Made by a program: the position numbers and the translations under genes. Below the pieces are notes generated by a model, which worked only from the letters and a program-made list of their open reading frames with translations, had not been told where the DNA came from and searched no databases. A stretch of DNA of 64,000 nt from a virus, in the IMG/VR virus record IMGVR_UViG_3300037584_002838, positions 1 to 64,000 of that record. One strand, 5' to 3'. Shown here one piece after another: positions 36,302-46,424 of this stretch (its first letter is position 1; every line of letters starts with the position of its first letter).

Positions 36302-37822
36302 TCATTCCTCTCTCAAAACTGCTACCTCAGTAGTTAGGAAAAGTTTTGCTATTGACATAGCCGCAAGGAAACTATTCCTAGTTACCTTTACAGGGTCTAC
36401 AATACCCAATTCAAACATATCTCCTACTTCACCGGTCATGGCATTAAGGGATTCATTCTCCTTTAGGATTCTGCACACAATTTCTCCATCAACGCTACTA
36501 TTTTCACATAGAGTTGCAAATGGAGAAAACAGTGATTCATAAACAATATGCTGTCCTTTCTTTGCCACATCTAAATAGTTCCTAGCATTAATAAGTGACT
36601 TACCACCACCAATAACAATACCTTCATCAAGTGCCGCTTTGGTAGCGTTAAGGGCATCATCAAGTCTTTCTTTGGTTTCACGCATTTCCATCTCTGAAGA
36701 TGCACCAACTTGAATAGTAGCAATACCACCATTCAATCTTGCAATACGCTTTTTGTATCGCATCTTGTCAAACTTGTCATCTGATGATTCGTACAACTCT
36801 TTCAATGAAAATACTTTATGTTGTTTAGAATCTGAATCATCATTACCTCCACCAATAATAACTGTATTATCTTTAGAAATAATTACCTTATCAGCAGTAC
36901 CTAACTCATCTAATGTGGTCATTGATGGGTCGTCTTTGCTTTCCTCATTAAACATCTTTCCACCACAAACAGTTACAATGTCGTCTAACTCATCTAATTG
37001 AGCATCACCGAAGTTTGGTGCTTTTACTACTGCTACTTCAATTGTCTTTTGAAGTACATTCATAATCACATTACTTAATGCAGTACCTTCCATACCACGA
37101 CAAATGATTACTAATGGCTTCTTATTCTTAGCACACAATTCTAGCAACGGCAGTATGTCTTGGAAATGTCTAATGTTTAGATTAGATGAAAAGATAACGG
37201 GATTATCAAATGTTACTTTACCATCATCTCCATTACACATCATATGGCTTAGATAGCCTTCATCAAACTCCAAACCGCTTCTTGTAACTATTTGGGTTTT
37301 ATGAGTTTTAGACTCTTCAACAGTAATGATACCATCACGCCCTACTGCACTTATAGCCTCTTGAATCAGAGAACCTAACTCATTATCATTATTAGCCGCA
37401 ATAGTGGCAACATTCAGAATATCATCATCAAGAATAGGAGTCGCATTATCTATTAGATAAGAAGCAATAATTTCCTGTGCCTCTTCTAATTCATTCTGAA
37501 GGACTCTGATATTGTAATTCTCTTGTTTCTGAATATTTTCAACAAGTGCTTGAGCAATAATACAAGCAGTTGTTGTACCATCACCGGAATTATCTTGTGC
37601 CTTACTTGCTAAGTTTTGAACCATCTGTACTCCCATCTGAACATATGGGTCATTACTTGATACATACTTAGTGATAGTAACACCATCGTTAATTACAACA
37701 GGCGGATTACCTTGCAGAATTACCGTCTTTGCCTGTGGCCCTAATGTGGGCTTAACAGTATTTGCTACTAAATCAATTCCTTCTTTCAATTTCTGTTTTA
37801 CTTCTTCTCCATTAATTATCAT
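36302..37822 (-). CDS. groEL: Group I chaperonin GroEL
   Basis: TLGP, NDGVTI, GDGTTT, KAPNFGD and GIVDP motifs. Confidence 0.95.
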   Translation of the reverse strand: MIINGEEVKQKLKEGIDLVANTVKPTLGPQAKTVILQGNPPVVINDGVTITKYVSSNDPYVQMGVQMVQNLASKAQDNSGDGTTTACIIAQALVENIQKQENYNIRVLQNELEEAQEIIASYLIDNATPILDDDILNVATIAANNDNELGSLIQEAISAVGRDGIITVEESKTHKTQIVTRSGLEFDEGYLSHMMCNGDDGKVTFDNPVIFSSNLNIRHFQDILPLLELCAKNKKPLVIICRGMEGTALSNVIMNVLQKTIEVAVVKAPNFGDAQLDELDDIVTVCGGKMFNEESKDDPSMTTLDELGTADKVIISKDNTVIIGGGNDDSDSKQHKVFSLKELYESSDDKFDKMRYKKRIARLNGGIATIQVGASSEMEMRETKERLDDALNATKAALDEGIVIGGGKSLINARNYLDVAKKGQHIVYESLFSPFATLCENSSVDGEIVCRILKENESLNAMTGEVGDMFELGIVDPVKVTRNSFLAAMSIAKLFLTTEVAVLREE

Positions 37823-38037
37823 TTTACCACCGCCAAAATAAACTCATAAGGAATAAAGAGTAATTCATTTCTTTTAGTATATTCCCTCTTATCATTAAAG
37901 GCAACCACTTTACCATTCAGTGACTTGTCACATTGGCAATCAATCACTCTACCTTCGTTGGTGGCCTTAGTTAAGATACCGCTTTCGCTCTTTCTTTCTT
38001 CTATTTTCACAATTACATATTCTCCTACTGCTCTCAT
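37819..38037 (-). CDS. groES: Co-chaperonin GroES-like
   Basis: GEYVIVK...SESGIL...GRVI...ILAVV. Directly upstream of groEL. Confidence 0.85.
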   Translation of the reverse strand: MRAVGEYVIVKIEERKSESGILTKATNEGRVIDCQCDKSLNGKVVAFNDKREYTKRNELLFIPYEFILAVVK

Positions 38038-38300: not shown

Positions 38301-38575
38301 TCTTCCTCACCGTTGATATTAACCCATCCTTTATTCATATCTGTATCAATGAAAGTCCAAATATGGTTCTTATGAAACTCCATCAGGTCATTGTAGGAAT
38401 TGCCTTTCTTACCATTAAACACACCTCTAACTTTAGATTCATTCTTATCTCTAGGATGCCTTTGCGAATGAAGTTTTCTTCTCATCCGTAAAGGCATTCT
38501 TTCAGAATCATTTAATGCCCTGTCATGGTATTTTCTCATAGTGCTTTGACCTGTCTTTATTCTTCTAATTCTCAT
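38297..38575 (-). CDS. Basic hypothetical protein
   Basis: 92 aa, coupled to neighbours. Confidence 0.5.
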   Translation of the reverse strand: MRIRRIKTGQSTMRKYHDRALNDSERMPLRMRRKLHSQRHPRDKNESKVRGVFNGKKGNSYNDLMEFHKNHIWTFIDTDMNKGWVNINGEEE

Positions 38576-39063
38576 TCTTCTTCACTACTCCATGTTTGCA
38601 ATCTATTAAATTCATAATTTTGGAATATATGCAAACTTCTAGGATTACCATTATGCCATGTACCATAATGACCTCTGCCACCCAATACTACTGCATTCTG
38701 CATTAGCGGTTCCCAAATGGAAACTGTACTAATATCTGTACCGCTAAAATAAGCAGAACCGAATGGATGAGTATGAATCCAACATACAATAGGCAACTTC
38801 ATACCAACAGGGTCTACCTTAAAATCAACATAACCTGCGGTTCCCGATGAAATATGTAAATTATCTTTAGCATCAATTACTACTTGCACTTCAAGCCCAT
38901 TTAAGACTTCAGTAGATGCAAACCAAATAGAATCCCAAAAACTCTTACAAGAGTAATCACCATCGTATGCTTCAGTTATAATCTTATTAACCAAATCATC
39001 TTGCCATGTCTTTTTCCATATTGCTAATTCTTCTACTGCTTCTGTCCAATCAAAATCGCTCAT
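38572..39063 (-). CDS. JAB/MPN+ (JAMM) metalloprotease
   Basis: Upstream Glu (LEVQV) plus WIHTHPFGSAYFSGTD, matching HxH-x7-S-x2-D. Confidence 0.9.
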   Translation of the reverse strand: MSDFDWTEAVEELAIWKKTWQDDLVNKIITEAYDGDYSCKSFWDSIWFASTEVLNGLEVQVVIDAKDNLHISSGTAGYVDFKVDPVGMKLPIVCWIHTHPFGSAYFSGTDISTVSIWEPLMQNAVVLGGRGHYGTWHNGNPRSLHIFQNYEFNRLQTWSSEEE

Positions 39064-40052
39064 TGTTTCACTTCCATTTTCTCTAGTTTCTTCTTAGTCC
39101 TATCAATCTTCTTTTGAAGTTTCTTTGACTTTCTATCGCTTCTTCTATCTTTCCATCTTTGCAATAAAGACTTCTTTACAGGAAGCGATTGAGTTTTCAT
39201 ATCATTCTTGATTTCAGTAGCCCTTCTCATAATAGTTTCACTTGTATCATAATAAAAGTCATAATGCTTTTCTACATGCTTTGCTATTAACCAATAAGGG
39301 CGACCAAACTTCTGTCTTGCTTCATCAATAGTTAGACTATGCCACATAACCATAGCCTCTAATGATTCATTATAAGTCCAAGCCTTATGTGCATTAGGAT
39401 AACTTACAGTTGCAATACCCATTGTTACAGGCTTTCCCTCTTCTTTGTGATTATTCACATATTCATTTCTTGTGCCGTTAAGGTTACGCTTACTCAAGAC
39501 CCTATTCCAACGAGCGACAATAGCCTTGTATGTTCGACCCTTGAATAAAGTAGTAGGTGGATATGCGCCTTTAGTGGTTTTCCATTCAATAACAATATCA
39601 TCTTCCTCAGAAGTCCATCTGTTGTTATTAGTCCTTTTAGGCGCAGACTTTTTCCTTCCTTTATAGGTGGTTCCTTCAGTCTTATTCGTATCTCCCTCTA
39701 AAGTTTCAATCATTTCCTTAGCCTGTTCTTTAGTAAAATCCCCCTTATTAGCAGAAGTAATTAGTTGATTAGTTAATCTTTCTAATTCCTTCTTAGTGCC
39801 ATTCTTTAGAGTTAAAGCAGATATGTACTTGCATTGCTTTCTTGTAGCAGGGTCATTCTTCCAATGAGAAAAATTATCTTCAACCTTAACCTCATATTGA
39901 TTCTGTATTCTAGTTATTGTTGCACGAAGATTAGCACCGCTTCTCTTTGGAAAGCCCGCCTCTACCATTTTATCAGCAACCTTCGCCCAACTTAATCCTT
40001 CATTTCTGCATTTTATTGCAAATCCTATTTGTTCCGTAGTATATTTTTTCAT
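39060..40052 (-). CDS. Multi-HTH/Myb-like DNA-binding protein
   Basis: N-terminal YTTEQI...GLSWAKVA HTH, and a Myb-like RWTSEED...GRTYKAIVARW repeat. Confidence 0.55.
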   Translation of the reverse strand: MKKYTTEQIGFAIKCRNEGLSWAKVADKMVEAGFPKRSGANLRATITRIQNQYEVKVEDNFSHWKNDPATRKQCKYISALTLKNGTKKELERLTNQLITSANKGDFTKEQAKEMIETLEGDTNKTEGTTYKGRKKSAPKRTNNNRWTSEEDDIVIEWKTTKGAYPPTTLFKGRTYKAIVARWNRVLSKRNLNGTRNEYVNNHKEEGKPVTMGIATVSYPNAHKAWTYNESLEAMVMWHSLTIDEARQKFGRPYWLIAKHVEKHYDFYYDTSETIMRRATEIKNDMKTQSLPVKKSLLQRWKDRRSDRKSKKLQKKIDRTKKKLEKMEVKQ

Positions 40053-40064
40053 TTTTATTCCTCC

Positions 40065-40625
40065 TTATACATTTAACATCATAAATGACTTTACTTGTTC
40101 GTCATTAAACCATCTTTGAATCCATTGTGCGCCAATACCGGCTATCGCAGTTTGCATGAAATGAACGCCAATATTGCTACCATCCCATGAATCACCTTGA
40201 CAAGAGAATGACCCCTCCGGCCCTGCTAATAATGTATCGTACATTTTAGGGTCAGCATCATAAGATACAAAAGCCGCATTACGGCCTTGTGCCCTCAAGT
40301 CAAGCCACTTAATATCTGAATTGTATAGTGTCCTTCTAACTGATAAGTTATCAACACAACATACAACCAAATCATATCCTTGCATTTGTTTTGCAGTTAG
40401 TATAGGGAACTTAGAACCACCATTAATACTGCGATACCTATTTCCCATAACCGATGCTTTGTTTTCTCCTACATCTTCTTCACTAAAGTTTTGATACGGC
40501 AGATTCTTTGTTTCTACCTTATCGGGGTCTGCTACTGTAATAGCATATAATCCTACTTTATCCAATATAGGTACTAAGAAACTCCCAATACCACCTACGC
40601 CTATAATTAATATTTTTCTTTTCAT
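40065..40625 (-). CDS. ThiF/MoeB/E1-like ubiquitin-activating enzyme (compact)
   Basis: GVGGIGS nucleotide-binding loop, D.DKVETKNL..Q, KA and CVDN...R motifs, with a candidate catalytic Cys in GSFSCQG. Confidence 0.9.
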   Translation of the reverse strand: MKRKILIIGVGGIGSFLVPILDKVGLYAITVADPDKVETKNLPYQNFSEEDVGENKASVMGNRYRSINGGSKFPILTAKQMQGYDLVVCCVDNLSVRRTLYNSDIKWLDLRAQGRNAAFVSYDADPKMYDTLLAGPEGSFSCQGDSWDGSNIGVHFMQTAIAGIGAQWIQRWFNDEQVKSFMMLNV

Positions 40626-40753
40626 TTTTTATTCCTCCTAATAATGTTTATGACTTTGTTCGTTATAGCCGCAATTTTTACATTGGACTCCTTCATAATT
40701 CTCTGTTTCCCATTCAAACATTGTTCCGTTACATCTTGGGCATGTATATTGTT

Positions 40754-41389
40754 TCATTCTAATCTCTCCAAATTTGCATTCCATCTTTTATTATACGAAT
40801 CTATTTCTTGATTGTATTTTGTTTTGTAATGGTCTGTAGGCCACCATTCGGGCATTCTGCTTTTTCTCCATTCAGCAAACTTCCATTTGCCTTCAAGATA
40901 ATAATGACGATATTGAAGGATTACAAACTCCCACATATCTATATCATTATTGTAGTCTAATCTGTACTTATCATCCATAGCAATAGTTACGGGCGTAGCA
41001 TCTTTCCATCTACCGTCATTTGATAGATATTGTGTTGTATCTAATATCCTCTCTTGCGAGCCATGCTTCTTTCCGTAACGATGTGTATATTCGGTACAAA
41101 GAGCCAACCCATGCGTGTATAACCATGCAGTATTGTTAGGGTTCTGTCTAGCCCATATTGTTGAAGGATGATTCAACATAGCAGGTTTCATTAGATTTGA
41201 ACCAATATCTCTATGAAATACTTTTAATTGAGCAAGTGTAGGTTCTTCATCATAATGCTCAATGTACTCAAAAAACAAAGCATTTGTATGTAACATTTGA
41301 CAAGTTTCTGTTGGCATTTTAACCACATGCTTATCTAACATTTGAATTGCTGCTTCTGTTGGATTTCTTGATAATGCAAATATATTCAT
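40754..41389 (-). CDS. Pyrimidine-dimer DNA glycosylase-like protein (DenV-related)
   Basis: MNIF...DKHVVKMPTETCQML, NHPSTIWAR and EYTHRYGKKH. Confidence 0.8.
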   Translation of the reverse strand: MNIFALSRNPTEAAIQMLDKHVVKMPTETCQMLHTNALFFEYIEHYDEEPTLAQLKVFHRDIGSNLMKPAMLNHPSTIWARQNPNNTAWLYTHGLALCTEYTHRYGKKHGSQERILDTTQYLSNDGRWKDATPVTIAMDDKYRLDYNNDIDMWEFVILQYRHYYLEGKWKFAEWRKSRMPEWWPTDHYKTKYNQEIDSYNKRWNANLERLE

Positions 41390-41527
41390 TTGAATTTCCT
41401 CCTTGCTTCTTCATATATCTTAAACGAGTCTTTACGACCCAAAAGAGTTTGTTGCTTACAATACTCTTTTCTTTTATTAATAGTAGTCACATAAGTATTT
41501 AGAAAATTCTTTTTCCAATATCTATGT

Positions 41528-42427
41528 TCACTCGTTGGTATTACATCTCTCATTCTTATTGTCATTTATATTCACTCCTTTTATTTCGGACATCTTATTA
41601 TATCCTAGCATTTCTATTATTTTCTTACTTGTCTTTCCTATTGCAGACAAGGAAACATCAGTGCTTTCTGATATTTCTGATTTAGTAATTCCTGTGTATC
41701 TACACATATTTACTGCTACCCAACATATACTTGAGTAGTATGCTCTTGGTTTATTGTAACAGTGATATTCAGTAATAGGTTCCATCTTCAACAGTAAATC
41801 AACTGCGTTAGAATAGAACATAATATCATCAGTTATTTTACTACAAGTTTGCTTGAGCAAAAAGGTAGGGTCGGCACCATACAAGATATTCTTATTCTTG
41901 AAATGATGAACCATTCTTTGAACCAACCTATTTACTATCTTAGTGGAACAAGAATACTCTGAACATAGTTTCTTCATTTCTATCGGAGTTCTATTCTCTT
42001 TGAGAACATAACATACAGTAGCAGTACATCTTGTTTCTAACTTAATGTTGCCAAACAAACCCTTTCTCTGCGCTTGCATGTAGCATTCTTCTACTCTATC
42101 CTTGAGAGGATGGTTTATCTGAATAGAAGATAATATCATATTACAGGTCTGTAATGCTTGAGTAATATGTCTTGGTATTGCTAAGTTATTTCCTCTAACA
42201 TTAAACTTAGAAGAACCTTTGCCGCTAATTACAGAACCTAATTTGCCCCTATCGGCACTATGAGTAACATTGCCATCATCAACCATTCTTACAGTTTCCT
42301 CAAACAATTCTGTGACTACTACTAAACCACAATCACTGCATTCAGTTTCGCCCATTCTTTCGTTGTAATTAAATATCAGACTTCCACATTCCACACATTT
42401 CATTTTCATTCCTCCCTTCATTTTCAT
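41528..42427 (-). CDS. tfb: Viral transcription factor B (TFB/TFIIB-like)
   Basis: N-terminal Zn ribbon CVECGS...GETECSDCGLV followed by two cyclin-like helical repeats. Confidence 0.8.
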   Translation of the reverse strand: MKMKGGMKMKCVECGSLIFNYNERMGETECSDCGLVVVTELFEETVRMVDDGNVTHSADRGKLGSVISGKGSSKFNVRGNNLAIPRHITQALQTCNMILSSIQINHPLKDRVEECYMQAQRKGLFGNIKLETRCTATVCYVLKENRTPIEMKKLCSEYSCSTKIVNRLVQRMVHHFKNKNILYGADPTFLLKQTCSKITDDIMFYSNAVDLLLKMEPITEYHCYNKPRAYYSSICWVAVNMCRYTGITKSEISESTDVSLSAIGKTSKKIIEMLGYNKMSEIKGVNINDNKNERCNTNE

Positions 42428-43724
42428 TTGTCTTAATGTAAGATTTGATAGTGCTGACTAATACTACTGTCATTGTGTCGTTTAACAGTGCTAATGCTCT
42501 TGCTACGAATTGGTCGCCAACAGAAGAACCTGCTGACATATTATCAATACATATTGGCCCTTTCCATCTTGGTTCATTAGTAGGTTTTTGTGGGATTTGT
42601 ATAAGTTGGTTTAATACTGAGTCGGTTAAGCCCTCTCCCCCTGCTTTAAGATATGACTTTTTATCAACCACATCATCAACAATCTCATATCCCGCATTCA
42701 TCAATATCTCTCTATTATGCTCGACAGTTTCATTATATGAATCAATCCACTTTAATTCTGCTTGAGCGAACTCGGAATCGTTTTGATTGGTATTCCAAAC
42801 AAAGGTAGATACTGCTTGAATATCGGACTTGAATTGGTTATCTGTTATCTTCCAATCCCAACCCTTTCCACGAATATACATAGCATCGGGTTCACCCTCA
42901 TCATTCCATTCTACCTTAATTCTGTCGGGGTATCTTTGTTCGACTTCCTTAACTAATTCTCTTGCTCTTTTCTCAACAATGTCCTGTTGCCTATTTTGCT
43001 TCATAAACTCTTTCATAACCTTAATATCAGACATTTTAGGAGATACACCCATAGTTCTTTCATACAGGATTTCCGGTGAAGTAAAAGCCCACTTCTTGCT
43101 TCTTCTATGATTATGTAAGTAGAAGGAACAGAACGATTCTAACTCTTTAGAAGTTAGTGTTCCCCAAACACCATCAGCAACTTCAATAGCGATTTCGTTA
43201 TCTCCGATTTGTTGGCAGTTTAGCCTAACACTAACTTTATTGAAATCATCAAAGAAGTGATAAGGTACTCTATTCTCTAAACAATATTTTACATCTTCCG
43301 GCAGTGACAATGAAGAATACAAAGATTTCATTAATTTACCCGCATCTTTTTCTGTAACTGACTTAAAAACTAATCTTCCTAAAGCAGAAGCAATAGTGTT
43401 CAAACTCTCACTTTTACCATTAAGACTCAATCTATTATTAGTTCTGCCAAGTGCTAGAAAACACCCACCAATATTAAGCACCACTTGATAATCTCTATTC
43501 GGAAAATTCATGTATGTACCATGACTACTTCTTCGCCATCCCGAAGTAGTTCTCTTTAATTGACTTTTCATAAACTTAGACAGTGCATCGTGAACAGGGT
43601 CTTTTGCATTCCTATTCCCCTGCAATGTAACCACGCCCGATATGACAACATCTCCTTCTATTTTTGTTTGCCAATATTTTCCACTATCATTCGGTTGTCT
43701 TATTCTTATTCTTAATTCTCCCAT
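42369..43724 (-). CDS. Uncharacterised protein, candidate divergent E2-like domain at C-terminus
   Basis: 451 aa. C-terminal WKGPICIDN resembles the G-x-I-C-L-D E2 active-site loop, and E1/JAB/Ubl genes are nearby. Unverified. Confidence 0.35.
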   Translation of the reverse strand: MGELRIRIRQPNDSGKYWQTKIEGDVVISGVVTLQGNRNAKDPVHDALSKFMKSQLKRTTSGWRRSSHGTYMNFPNRDYQVVLNIGGCFLALGRTNNRLSLNGKSESLNTIASALGRLVFKSVTEKDAGKLMKSLYSSLSLPEDVKYCLENRVPYHFFDDFNKVSVRLNCQQIGDNEIAIEVADGVWGTLTSKELESFCSFYLHNHRRSKKWAFTSPEILYERTMGVSPKMSDIKVMKEFMKQNRQQDIVEKRARELVKEVEQRYPDRIKVEWNDEGEPDAMYIRGKGWDWKITDNQFKSDIQAVSTFVWNTNQNDSEFAQAELKWIDSYNETVEHNREILMNAGYEIVDDVVDKKSYLKAGGEGLTDSVLNQLIQIPQKPTNEPRWKGPICIDNMSAGSSVGDQFVARALALLNDTMTVVLVSTIKSYIKTNENEGRNENEMCGMWKSDI

Positions 43725-43849
43725 TTTATCACATCATATATGTATTATCATCTAATTTTTCTAAACAGGCTAAATGAGCCTCTTTCTTCATTTCTTCGGG
43801 CAATAACAGTTGCCCTCCACAAATCCGACATTTGGTTGCTATTCTTTCT

Positions 43850-44218
43850 TTATACGACCAATGGCTCTTTGTGTATTCTGGATTCTTTTCCTTCATTATT
43901 CCACCTCTCTAATTTCGCACATACTTCACAATACTTATTACAATTTTTATCGTGGTAATACAAGGCATCAAGTCTTTCATTGAAATGTTTTTTTGCAAAC
44001 TTTCTGAAACCCATTTCAACGGCTTCATTATTTTCCCACAAAACTATTTTTAGACTTTGCCATAATCTAAATCGCTTATCCTTTTCTTCAGAAAGCGAAT
44101 CACAAACATTGAATGTTTGTCTTAATCTTTTTCTTGCTTTTTTAGACCAATCGAAAGTTGTCACTACTCTTTTCATATCCTTATAGGACATATTGCGGAG
44201 TCGTGGCAACCTATACAT
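43850..44218 (-). CDS. Hypothetical protein
   Basis: 122 aa with CxxxCxxC and a GGTGA RBS. Confidence 0.5.
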   Translation of the reverse strand: MYRLPRLRNMSYKDMKRVVTTFDWSKKARKRLRQTFNVCDSLSEEKDKRFRLWQSLKIVLWENNEAVEMGFRKFAKKHFNERLDALYYHDKNCNKYCEVCAKLERWNNEGKESRIHKEPLVV

Positions 44219-44226
44219 TATTTCAC

Positions 44227-46086
44227 CTATACTTCACAAGCACCGCCAGCACAAGCCAATTCGCCTGTTAAGTCGGTATTATCTTCGGTTTCTAAAACCT
44301 GTGTTAAATCTATATTCTTTAGATTCTTAGACATAGTTAGATAAGTTTCCTCATCAATCGTTTCAAAGGGTGCCTGTTTGTATGTTCCTCCATCATAAGG
44401 CAATACAGACAGACCGTTGTAATAATGTCTATTCATCCAAAGCCATTCACCAACATCATCCCATTCATCATCTTTTACAGATATTGTTGCTGAAACATTA
44501 TGGGTATTCAGACCATCTACATGACCTGCTCTAACCCAACGAATACTGAAGTTTTTTACACGCTCTAATAAATCAAATACTGATTCATGCCGTGTAATAG
44601 AACCGGCAGGTGATTTCTGCGGTATAGAAATAACTGCCTGTTCATCAGGATTAAAGTATTCATCTTCAACCAAGTCCGGTTGATTCTTTAGTAGATAAGA
44701 ATATATTGCTTCATTCTTACCGACTCTAATCCTACGAATATAATAGTTATCATGCCAAGCATGAATACCACTACTTGTACCTAATACAAGTGAAGTGGTT
44801 CCCGCAGGTTTTACACAAGTAATCCTTGCGGCGGGCTTTACTCCAATGAGTTTGGAAATATGCTTATTTTCCTGTTTAGCGGCAAATGCAGCCATTTCCA
44901 AATCTAAGCCTTCAACAACATTAGAAGCAATACCCGTCATAGATACACCAAGCAAAGAATCCTTTTCCGTATTCTTTCTCCATACTTCTCTAAGGTAATG
45001 AAAATCTGTATAACCTGCTTGCAATGTTCCTAAGAAAGAAGCGGCTCTTACCCTTGCTTCTAAATCGGCTTGGTCTTTTACATCAGAAGCATTTACTTCT
45101 GTAAGATTACAAAACTGATATGGGCGAAGTGCTATTTCACAACAAGGATTAGTACCCCAATCTTTGTCATTACTAAAATAAACGGCTGGTTCGCCACTGC
45201 CACTATGTTGTATTCTTTCCCATAGACCCATAAAGAAGTTTTTAGTTACTCTATGTCTAAGAATAACTGCTGAATTATTTGCACGACCTCTTTGTGGATT
45301 ATTTTCCCACCAATTACCGGACTTACAACTAATCATCTTTGAATCATCAGCACTGAATAAACTAATCATAGCGGCTCTACGAATACCGCCTGCTAATACT
45401 GCATCTGCTAAATAACACATAATATCATGTGCTTCAATTGAATCTAATTTAGAGCCATTAGTTTTATTTTGGAGTATTCCTTCTATTTTAACTAAACATT
45501 CCCTTAATGGCTGAAAACCCGGTGCTTTACCGCCACTAGTCTTTAATAGCGTTCCTTTTGGTCTAATATCAGAATAATCAAAAATAGGACTACTACTCCT
45601 ATTTCCGGTATAACACTCCAAAAGGATTTTAATTGAATCAGCCCATCCCTCGATAGAATCGCTAATAAGATACCTGCGTTTTCTTTCGGGATTAGGTTGT
45701 ATGATTTCCGGTAATTCATCAATATGATGTCTTTGGACTGAATATCCAACCCCCGTTCCACCGAGAAGCAAGAACATAGCCTCGCTAAAAGATAAAATGG
45801 AATCAATAGGCATATAAGCACAATTATACACCCTATTTGGACTAATTTCAATAGGCTTGCCCCCAAATTGCATAGACCGCATAGAAGGGAGGACTTTCTT
45901 TGTTTTGACATATCGCTCATATACTTCACCAATTTCTTTGGTTAATTCGGGATATTTCTTAATGTGCATATTTCTATTCCTTGTAACTATTTCATTCCAA
46001 GTTTCTCTTCTTTCGTGTGCAGGTAAATACCTTGCATACTTCATATGTACTGTAATATCCGATAATGTTTCAATTTCATTCGACAT
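44227..46086 (-). CDS. nrdJ: Class II (B12-dependent) ribonucleotide reductase
   Basis: NCAY, GGIRRAA, TNPCCEI, CNLTE, KPAGTTS and C-terminal CAGGACEV. No beta-subunit gene in the window. Confidence 0.9.
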   Translation of the reverse strand: MSNEIETLSDITVHMKYARYLPAHERRETWNEIVTRNRNMHIKKYPELTKEIGEVYERYVKTKKVLPSMRSMQFGGKPIEISPNRVYNCAYMPIDSILSFSEAMFLLLGGTGVGYSVQRHHIDELPEIIQPNPERKRRYLISDSIEGWADSIKILLECYTGNRSSSPIFDYSDIRPKGTLLKTSGGKAPGFQPLRECLVKIEGILQNKTNGSKLDSIEAHDIMCYLADAVLAGGIRRAAMISLFSADDSKMISCKSGNWWENNPQRGRANNSAVILRHRVTKNFFMGLWERIQHSGSGEPAVYFSNDKDWGTNPCCEIALRPYQFCNLTEVNASDVKDQADLEARVRAASFLGTLQAGYTDFHYLREVWRKNTEKDSLLGVSMTGIASNVVEGLDLEMAAFAAKQENKHISKLIGVKPAARITCVKPAGTTSLVLGTSSGIHAWHDNYYIRRIRVGKNEAIYSYLLKNQPDLVEDEYFNPDEQAVISIPQKSPAGSITRHESVFDLLERVKNFSIRWVRAGHVDGLNTHNVSATISVKDDEWDDVGEWLWMNRHYYNGLSVLPYDGGTYKQAPFETIDEETYLTMSKNLKNIDLTQVLETEDNTDLTGELACAGGACEV

Positions 46087-46104
46087 TCTAAAACCTCATA
46101 ACGC

Positions 46105-46150
46105 AAAAAAAAGGGGAGAGAACGGGTGCCCAAAAACCCGTTCTCCCCCC
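46105..46150 (-). terminator. Terminator downstream of the Ubl gene
   Basis: Hairpin GGGGAGAGAACGGGT...ACCCGTTCTCCCCC followed by a U-tract on the minus strand. Confidence 0.75.
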
Positions 46151-46180
46151 AAAAGAGCAGACTAACTCTACTTAATGAAA

Positions 46181-46381
46181 TTAACCGCCTACAATAGCAG
46201 GTGTCAAATCCACCATTTCTACATCGTCCCAATTAACTTCGCTGATTGCTTCTCTTGCTACCAATTCACCGTTGATAAATACCCAATGAGTCGGGTGTGT
46301 ATCAATCTGCTCGATAACTTCCTCAGAAGCCATAACCAATTCAGTATGTCCTGTTTCGTTCAAAATAGTAATCTTAATCAT
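46181..46381 (-). CDS. Ubiquitin-like (beta-grasp, SAMP/ThiS/MoaD-like) protein ending in Gly-Gly
   Basis: 66 aa with IKITIL, VFING and V.LTPAIVGG-stop. Confidence 0.85.
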   Translation of the reverse strand: MIKITILNETGHTELVMASEEVIEQIDTHPTHWVFINGELVAREAISEVNWDDVEMVDLTPAIVGG

Positions 46382-46398
46382 CCTATCATCTCCTTAAT

Positions 46399-46424
46399 CT
46401 CTCTATGTTCCCCCTCTATATAAG
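46399..46424 (-). promoter_or_regulatory. TATA promoter with downstream GAACATAGAGAG element (Ubl gene)
   Basis: Minus strand reads CTTATATA-N6-GAACATAGAGAG. The same element and spacing occur at 52903-52928. Confidence 0.65.

Follow-up and report, generated by a model that had tools for sequence, protein, structure and literature searches.

A Candidate Ubiquitin-Like Conjugation Module Encoded by Magroviruses and by a Distant Group of Bacteriophages

Introduction

Do viruses of archaea and bacteria encode protein-tagging pathways of their own? The question is raised by a block of genes at 38572–46424 in a 64,000-nucleotide stretch of viral DNA (positions 1–64,000 of IMG/VR record IMGVR_UViG_3300037584_002838; hereafter the window, by which we mean the whole stretch), in which a reading of the letters without database searches had picked out a small ubiquitin-like protein (Ubl), a compact E1-type activating enzyme, a JAB (JAMM) protease, and a candidate E2-type carrier, all facing the same way. 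Ubl conjugation in prokaryotes has been demonstrated in archaeal cells, with the small archaeal modifier proteins (SAMPs), and in anti-phage defenses of bacteria (CBASS Cap2/Cap3, Bil, and Bub). We have now followed up this sequence-only reading by computation. The conclusion that we favor, and that we regard as fairly probable, is that the virus encodes its own four-component conjugation pathway, consisting of a Ubl, an E1, an E2-like protein, and a JAB protease.

Few archaeal viruses of the surface ocean are as abundant as the magroviruses. The window encodes a family-B DNA polymerase, an ATP-dependent DNA ligase, a UvrD-type helicase, a GroEL-type chaperonin, and a tail tube protein, together with a class II-like ribonucleotide reductase (RNR) and the transcription initiation factor TFB, and close homologues of the proteins of the block are found by the hundreds on marine viral contigs of about 90–97 kb, including that of Poseidoniales virus YSH_150918. 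The combination of GroEL with RNR has been reported for group B magroviruses (Philosof et al., PMC5434244). A blastn search with the whole region revealed only RNR-level similarity. The Ubl module lies in the replication or early gene cluster and not among the tail genes.

Results

A β-Grasp Tag

An open reading frame (ORF) check bore out all four genes as first read, each on the minus strand. The Ubl that would serve as the tag (46181–46381) is a protein of 66 residues with the C-terminus PAIVGG. Its AlphaFold2 model has a predicted local distance difference test score (pLDDT) of 92.4 and displays the order strand–strand–helix–strand–strand–helix–strand, ending in a floppy tail whose last residues have low pLDDT. 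The fold matches returned by a structure search were all Ubl or β-grasp proteins, and the β-grasp assignment of the sequence-only reading is thereby upheld. A sequence search of the PDB with the Ubl profile gave noise only, as did the same search with the profile of the phage Ubls described below. The family comprises 476 clusters.

To follow the module in relatives we retrieved 80 viral loci by means of the Ubl and sought each gene of the block in them by tblastn. The sequence (I/V)VGG is kept in all 80 of these loci and is nearly invariant across 120 database homologues. The window Ubl ends at GG, that is, in the mature form with 0 residues after it. Elsewhere among the 80 loci the GG is followed by 0, 1, or 2 residues, in 23 different sequences, and among the 120 database homologues by up to 4. 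Proteins that end exactly at GG make up no more than about a quarter to 40% of the total, and the tails that follow it are of nearly any kind (NY, SL, CY, Q, DL, AILS, and others). An invariant GG succeeded by unconstrained residues fits a precursor whose tail is cleaved to expose the GG. In a Bil system of bacteria, the JAB has been shown to pre-process its cognate Ubl (Chambers et al., PMC10557695). A search for extended or fused versions of the Ubl in magroviruses found none, a negative that is weak evidence. In the window Ubl no Arg or Lys follows R43, so that the remnant left by trypsin would comprise the 23 residues E44–G66 and not diGly; Glu-C would give a remnant of 11 residues that ends in IVGG, and Asp-N one of 9.

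The promoter and terminator signals ascribed to the Ubl gene were confirmed in the sequence (46105–46424, minus strand). A TTATATA box lies at approximately 46418–46424, about 35 nucleotides upstream of the gene, and a terminator scan identified a hairpin followed by T8 at 46113–46150, with a 15-bp stem containing 10 GC pairs, directly after the stop codon. Among the relatives, a TATA-like box is present upstream of the Ubl gene in 51 of 80 and a run of six or more T residues is present downstream in 40 of 80. Signals of this kind suggest a transcript that is monocistronic and highly expressed.

We also note that residues 8–13 (N-E-T-G-H-T) and 24–33 (E-Q-I-D-T-H-P-T-H-W) of the Ubl form His-rich loops, which apart from the GG tail are its most conserved segments. 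The Ubls of the phages keep the G-H of the first loop and the Trp that ends the second. These loops may serve for recognition or may bind a metal, which for a Ubl would be out of the ordinary.

A Minimal Adenylating Enzyme and a JAMM Protease

The product of the second gene (40065–40625, minus strand) is a protein of 186 residues that matches the Pfam ThiF family (PF00899) with an E value of 1.5e-18 and a score of 67.2 bits (cut-off, 28.1), over residues 3–102 only. The residues of the adenylation site are invariant in its family, as the description of the protein as a compact ThiF/E1 would have it: GxGGIGS, DPD (D33 and D35), K40-N41, K56, D92-N93, and R97. Also invariant is C142, the candidate catalytic cysteine (codon 40200–40202), which is found within S-F-S-C-Q-G (S-x-S-C-Q-G in the family) and which is conserved both in the magrovirus E1s and in 28 distant compact E1s that are 30–45% identical. 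In those distant E1s the residues of the nucleotide site and the Gln next to the cysteine are invariant as well. A Pfam scan and inspection of the sequence revealed no rhodanese domain, no ubiquitin-fold domain, and no C-terminal extension.

In a profile search of the PDB the E1 matched 9egc, Cap2, MccB, UBA5, UBA3, MoeB, and ThiF. The best solved relative was 9egc, on which a search of the literature turned up nothing pertinent; Cap2 was matched at 2.5e-8 and MccB at 8e-8, and Cap2, MccB, UBA5, and UBA3 ranked ahead of MoeB and ThiF by small margins. The Rossmann part of the protein also matches many of the Cap2 "E1-E2" models of PADLOC (best, 2.2e-11). Its score against the NCBIfam UbaA model NF047750 was 30.3 bits (cut-off, 450), which does not make it an equivalog of UbaA. 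Out of 1.84 billion representatives the E1 profile collected 326 clusters at E ≤ 1e-10, and full-length proteins of about 190–205 residues are numerous among these; longer relatives of the compact E1 had ThiF plus incidental helix-turn-helix, HRDC, or Rossmann matches and included no informative fusion. Co-folding of the E1 with the Ubl gave a score of 0.21 against a mark of 0.32, a result that counts neither way. To judge from its sequence, then, the 186-residue protein is a minimal ThiF/E1-type enzyme with predicted adenylating activity.

The third gene (38572–39063, minus strand) specifies a JAMM/MPN+ metalloprotease of 163 residues. That its catalytic motif is intact, as had been claimed, is evident from the invariance of E58, H97, H99, S107, and D110 (E...HxH-x7-S-xx-D; motif codons approximately 38734–38775) in 46 homologues. 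The window protein scores 21.4 bits against Pfam Prok-JAB, below the cut-off of 25, and its phage counterpart scores 25.3 bits. A search of the PDB with the family profile matched JAMM deubiquitinases only, namely AMSH-LP at 4e-4, followed by STAMBP, Sst2, and Rpn11, and the motif aligns with the active site of AMSH-LP. On these grounds the JAMM protein is predicted to trim the tail of the Ubl and, probably, to remove conjugates.

A Large Protein with an Invariant Cysteine

The fourth gene (42369–43724, minus strand) encodes a protein of 451 residues, the candidate Ubl carrier or ligase, whose AlphaFold2 model has a pLDDT of 88.6. The GPICID string that had attracted notice in the sequence falls within the best-conserved segment of the family, and its cysteine, Cys392 (codon 42549–42551, motif W.GPICIDN), is the one invariant cysteine of the family, unchanged in 54 magrovirus and 19 phage homologues. 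In the model Cys392 lies 10 residues before a 13-residue helix. Residues 1–245 are built of β-meander and helix modules, of which approximately residues 81–245 are common to the phage homologues. The remainder, from about residue 246 to residue 451 (42369–42989, minus strand), matched the ubiquitin-conjugating (UBC) superfamily in about 40 of 50 rows of the VIA-align structural comparison. The individual scores were modest, yet for about 40 of 50 rows to fall in one superfamily is not expected from chance. On the model, the C-terminal 200 or so residues form a candidate UBC-like domain.

A Foldseek search of the BFVD with the model of the 451-residue protein returned three viral homologues only. 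A genome search for UQ_con (PF00179) gave no match, but its control genomes gave none either, and it carries no information. In a protein atlas a WGR domain emerged as a sub-threshold lead (0.78) for the protein as a whole and was not used; for the C-terminal domain the atlas gave nothing.

Linkage of the Four Genes in Magroviruses

The linkage of the four genes is nearly obligate and far exceeds what chance would give. The E1 gene was found in 78 of the 80 magrovirus loci and the JAB gene in 77, and every locus that lacks one of them ends before the position at which it would be expected. The 451-residue protein, a 55-residue Cys/His protein, and TFB were each found in all 80 loci. Strand and order never vary, the order being Ubl, RNR (when present, in 39 of 80), orf122, orf55, the 451-residue protein, TFB, E1, a 330-residue protein (when present, in 26 of 80), JAB, a GroES-like ORF, and GroEL. 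One lineage keeps this order although its E1 has no more than 53% identity. Co-occurrence across magroviruses, to which the sequence-only reading had looked for a check, thus holds in essentially all 80 loci, and it extends to a distant lineage of bacteriophages as well.

The Ubl and the E1, with median identities of 72.7% and 71.7%, are after RNR the most conserved of the 18 genes of the block; the median identity of TFB and of the 451-residue Cys protein is 39%. High conservation of the Ubl is expected for a tag that has to contact several partners.

The Same Four Genes in Bacteriophages

The distant compact E1s were used to retrieve 29 non-magrovirus viral contigs of 28–230 kb. Genes for a sigma-70 factor, a family-A DNA polymerase, and a tail sheath mark these as contigs of large, uncultured bacteriophages. 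In 26 of the 29 loci we found a cassette in the order large Cys protein, Ubl ending in ...ALVGG, JAB protease, and compact E1, with the JAB gene immediately before that of the E1. The phage Ubl is an ORF of 69–88 residues, sometimes with a tail after the GG (GGNAN, GGK, or GGN). Directly upstream of it is the gene for the large protein, which has 556–871 residues and no family match, and the C-terminus of which contains an invariant cysteine in a motif much like that of the 451-residue protein.

Comparison of profiles with hhalign related the two sets of proteins to each other. The magrovirus and phage Ubl families matched with a probability of 98.7% (E, 2.6e-16), and the Cys proteins with a probability of 93.5% (E, 2.4e-7) over 241 columns that correspond to residues 81–430 of the window protein and that include the Cys motif. 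The JAB families matched at the active site only. In one phage locus (L146) the order is permuted to E1, large protein, Ubl, and the set is still together. No other flanking gene is common to the magrovirus and phage loci (orf55, orf122, orf83, and orf92 were checked). Given that only four genes are common to both groups of viruses, the unit consists of the tag, the trimming protease, the minimal E1, and the Cys protein.

One phage contig of about 207 kb carries a Ubl (...GNLLKGG) that is fused in frame to an extension of about 195 residues (L103:6689–7510, plus strand). The extension, which includes a Cys-rich acidic linker, has no Pfam match, and from its sequence the fusion is a putative natural fusion precursor. 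The cassette has RNR 3–6 kb upstream of it and is followed in 22 of the 29 phage loci by a sigma-70 gene (for example, L081:10250–11044) and then by PolA.

Searches beyond these loci found little more. The Cys proteins of both groups gave no tblastn match among 50,697 deposited phage records. A pattern-limited scan of prokaryotic genomes, one for each of 185,579 species, recovered the magrovirus-type E1 on two contigs only (L161 and L162; NZMJ01000151.1 and NZMJ01000073.1), both assigned to the alphaproteobacterial metagenome-assembled genome of Maricaulis sp. IN14. These contigs carry the genes for the Cys protein, TFB, E1, JAB, RNR, and chaperonin. Since the magrovirus genes stand in their usual order and the GC content is 36–41%, the contigs are probably mis-binned viral DNA.

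The Search for Sulfur-Relay Partners

Sulfur-carrier pathways share with the viral module the triad of a β-grasp protein ending in GG, an E1 of the ThiF/MoeB type, and a JAMM protease, and some of them employ JAMM trimming (CysO/Mec+, QbsE/QbsD, and TtuB/TtuC/TtuD); in QbsE the residues after the GG are trimmed by a JAMM enzyme. What sets these pathways apart is that they have a rhodanese or other sulfurtransferase and an enzyme that accepts the sulfur, and that they have no UBC-like partner. We looked for such partners in five relatives rated 91–100% complete by CheckV. No rhodanese, cysteine desulfurase, PP-loop thiolase of the TtuA/NcsA type, MoaE, or PALP/CysM-type enzyme was found in any of them (PF00581, PF00266, PF01171, PF02391, and PF00291, 0 of 5), and the positive controls were detected in 11–14 of 14 control genomes. 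The sequence-only reading, which recognized no thiamine, molybdopterin, or tRNA-thiolation enzymes, is in line with this wider search. PP-loop and rhodanese searches of the phage contigs were likewise without a match, a weak result in contigs that are 30–43% complete.

Neighboring Genes

The interleaving of the module with genes for TFB and RNR, already remarked upon in the sequence, was borne out to different degrees for the two genes. The TFB gene (41528–42427, minus strand) separates the Cys-protein gene from the E1 gene in 80 of 80 relatives, and the profile of TFB matched human TFIIB (1.2e-12) and the core of Pyrococcus TFB (1e-10) in the PDB. The class II-like RNR (44227–46086, minus strand; phrog_367, E 1.8e-125, plus Pfam RNR domains) is inserted between the Ubl and the remaining genes of the module and is present in 39 of 80. 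Directly upstream of the Cys protein, in all 80 relatives, is the gene for the 55-residue protein with the pattern C-x2-C ... H-x2-C (43729–43896, minus strand). It has no family match and no counterpart in the phage cassette, and it may be an accessory component.

The gene for the 330-residue protein (39060–40052, minus strand) is optional; in the 26 relatives that have it, it is inserted between the E1 and JAB genes, and its product is 20–43% identical. This protein had been called Myb-like, a label for which we obtained no match in Pfam, PHROGs, NCBIfam, or PADLOC. On the far side of the JAB gene, a 72-residue ORF (37819–38037, minus strand), present in 61 of 80 relatives, lies directly upstream of the GroEL-type chaperonin. 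Its match to Cpn10/GroES is weak and sub-threshold (E, 0.008; 16.7 bits; cut-off, 21.1); according to the original magrovirus paper a co-chaperonin was expected to be unneeded.

Two side observations concern other genes of the window. A protein of 211 residues (40754–41389, minus strand) matches pyrimidine-dimer DNA glycosylase (PF03013, E 3e-8; phrog_624, E 1.6e-49). Its gene is located between TFB and E1 here and 1.5–4 kb upstream of the Ubl in most relatives, and hence it is mobile within the cluster. Finally, a tRNA-Arg(CCU) was called at 6970–7063 (plus strand). At 94 nucleotides it is unusually long, and it lies inside an ORF of 412 residues (6843–8081), so that either the ORF is spurious or the call needs checking. 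Genes for tRNA-Arg and tRNA-Leu have been reported in group B magroviruses.

Discussion

How might the four proteins work together? On the reading that we favor, the tag would be transcribed from its own promoter to its own terminator, mostly with one to four extra residues and in one phage with the fusion of 195 residues, and the JAMM protease would cleave after the GG. The minimal E1, with ATP, would then adenylate the exposed C-terminal Gly and would probably form a thioester between the tag and Cys142. From there the tag would be handed to Cys392 in the UBC-like domain of the 451-residue protein, the N-terminal two thirds of which would select the substrate; acting as an E2/E3 hybrid, this protein would attach the tag to its target. 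The same JAMM protease would probably remove the tag again. Targets could be proteins of the host or of the virus.

The analysis itself shows the fold of the tag, the catalytic motifs, the nearly obligate co-occurrence, the homology of all four parts with the phage cassette, and the absence of sulfur-relay partners. Every chemical step in the scheme, along with the role of Cys392, the reversibility of the tagging, the targets, and any part in remodeling the host, modifying viral proteins, or countering defenses, is something that we infer. Several findings weigh against the scheme. The fold of the Ubl fits the sulfur carriers MoaD, ThiS, TtuB, and CysO as well as it fits protein modifiers, and the Ubl has no conserved Lys, which makes the building of chains unlikely and single tagging more likely. 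As for the E1, every member of the family has Tyr44 where the NLxRQ motif calls for Arg, the CxxC zinc site is absent from the window protein and from its family, no known E2-docking domain is present, and the best NCBIfam matches are ThiF models, all of them far below their cut-offs. Further objections concern the candidate E2. The 451-residue protein has no match in Pfam, PHROGs, NCBIfam, PADLOC, or the sequences of the PDB; a Pfam scan of 54 members of the family gave noise only and no E2 family; and a Foldseek search of the PDB with the model gave no E2 match (probability ≤ 0.13). Moreover, it has no HPN motif, and where canonical E2s carry that motif it has an insertion of 70 residues. 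We have nonetheless not rejected the 451-residue protein as an E2, because Cys392 is invariant within the best-conserved segment of the protein and because a homologue travels with the module in phages. The protein is probably a Ubl carrier or ligase.

An alternative is tagging without an E2, in the manner of SAMP/UbaA/HvJAMM1, with the 451-residue protein as a conserved neighbor that could be a substrate, a nucleic-acid binder, or an interactor of TFB or sigma. In its favor are that SAMPylation in archaea proceeds without an E2 (PMC2948915 and PMC4895103), that neither sequence methods nor Foldseek recognize an E2 here, and that HPN is absent. Yet the Cys protein stays with the Ubl, JAB, and E1 genes in two groups of viruses that share no other flanking gene, even where the order is permuted. 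Its sole invariant cysteine lies within the most conserved motif of both families, and about 40 of the 50 structural rows point to one superfamily. We consider an E2-independent pathway unlikely. We think it similarly improbable that the tag is a sulfur carrier, which the E1 would adenylate and a host sulfurtransferase would convert to a thiocarboxylate for delivery of sulfur to tRNA, a nucleotide, a DNA base, or a cofactor, the JAMM enzyme doing no more than trim. Such a carrier would agree with the fold of the Ubl, with the rank of ThiF and MoeB as the best NCBIfam models for the E1, with the trimming of post-GG residues known from sulfur pathways, and with the position of the module beside RNR, a gene of nucleotide metabolism, in both groups of viruses. 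It is opposed by the want of sulfur-relay enzymes in five complete relatives with positive controls, by an E1 that has no rhodanese domain and whose top solved relatives (Cap2, MccB, UBA5, and UBA3) stand above MoeB and ThiF, if by small margins, and by a linked fourth protein with a UBC-like domain, which fits no known sulfur relay. Host enzymes could serve, however, and the 451-residue protein could be the sulfur acceptor, and we have therefore kept this explanation.

It is also conceivable, although in our judgment very improbable, that nothing is conjugated, and that the Ubl acts after processing in assembly or as a chaperone in the way of lambda TAPI, which the JAB domain of TAPK cuts, or that the E1 leaves it, as the end product, with a C-terminal adenylate or some other modified C-terminus in the manner of MccB. 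A phage Ubl and JAB acting without conjugation have been proposed for tail assembly in lambda and T1 (PMC1779556), MccB is one of the better matches of the E1 among solved structures, and the module adjoins GroEL and a GroES-like gene. But the module belongs to the replication or early cluster rather than to the tail genes, and simple processing would require neither an E1 with an invariant cysteine nor a UBC-like Cys protein. The MccB-like version we rejected, since the residue after the GG is not conserved and is not the conserved Asn that MccB chemistry requires. The sequence-only reading had itself named three findings that would speak against a tagging pathway. Two were open to a full test and one to a test in part, and none of them came up: the tag has a β-grasp fold, the genes co-occur in relatives, and no sulfur-transfer partner was found in five complete relative genomes.

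Conjugation by four components therefore remains the reading that we prefer, and on our best reading the known systems closest to it in logic are the Bil systems of bacteria. BilABCD Types I and II, which are ISG15-like, co-encode a Ubl, an E1, an E2, and a JAB (PMC10557695; Hor et al., cited therein), as the viral module does with a candidate in the place of the E2. The differences are several. Bil is an anti-phage defense of bacteria, whereas the present module is encoded by viruses of archaea and bacteria. The viral E1, at 186 residues, is far smaller. Unlike the E2 of Bil, the viral E2-like domain is without sequence similarity to known E2s, lacks HPN, has the 70-residue insertion, and follows a large N-terminal region. 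And where Bil is a compact operon, the magrovirus genes are interleaved with TFB and RNR. No PADLOC model matches the Ubl, the JAB, or the Cys protein. In Type II CBASS, too, E1 and E2 functions are paired with a JAB that reverses conjugation (Cap2/Cap3; PMC10097602), but Cap2 is a fusion of E1 and E2 that serves in host defense and conjugates the C-terminus of a CD-NTase instead of a free Ubl; only the Rossmann half of the viral E1 matches it, and the module has no CD-NTase. The SAMP/UbaA/HvJAMM1 system of archaea (PMC2948915, PMC4443979, and PMC4895103) is independent of an E2 and doubles as a sulfur relay, whereas the viral module includes a UBC-like Cys protein as its fourth part and is without sulfur partners.

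Among viruses the only precedent for a Ubl with a JAB that we found is TAPI (the Ubl) and TAPK (a JAB-NlpC/P60 protein) of lambda and T1, for which JAB cleavage at a C-terminal Gly has also been predicted (PMC1779556). TAPI and TAPK are not accompanied by an E1 or an E2-like protein and are encoded among tail genes, and the Ubl there is fused to a C-terminal domain. Our literature search, outside of which many subscription papers fell, found no Ubl–E1–JAB set and no four-gene set described for an archaeal virus or a phage, and neither Philosof et al. (PMC5434244) nor two later magrovirus surveys mention ThiF, JAB, or ubiquitin. What is new, then, is the encoding of the module by viruses, together with an E1 of minimal size and a UBC-like protein that is an orphan in sequence; the type of system is known from Bil, Bub, Cap2/Cap3, and SAMP.

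What might be tagged? A gene for an initiation factor adjoins the module in both groups of viruses, TFB in 80 of 80 magrovirus loci and sigma-70 in 22 of 29 phage loci, and in Haloferax the TATA-binding protein (TBP) is SAMPylated and then degraded (PMC4895103). One can imagine, as a long shot, that components of the host transcription machinery (TBP/TFB or sigma/RNA polymerase) are tagged by the module and thereby inactivated or degraded, the virus bringing in an initiation factor of its own. On that same view the module would be an ancient system common to viruses of bacteria and archaea and used for host takeover, and both its minimal E1 and its family of E2/E3 hybrids would be new, an extension that we regard as just as doubtful. 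The proximity may merely reflect the neighborhood of an early or replication cluster, near RNR and polymerase.

If the pathway that we favor is real, then viruses of prokaryotes carry complete tagging pathways of their own, and the abundance of magroviruses would mean that the system operates on a very large scale. The E1 of 186 residues and the UBC-like protein without relatives in sequence would provide models for a minimal transfer from E1 to E2. The presence of one module in viruses of two domains of life bears on the spread and evolution of ubiquitin-type systems. It also yields the testable idea that viruses of prokaryotes, as many viruses of eukaryotes do, may take over their hosts by the covalent tagging of proteins.

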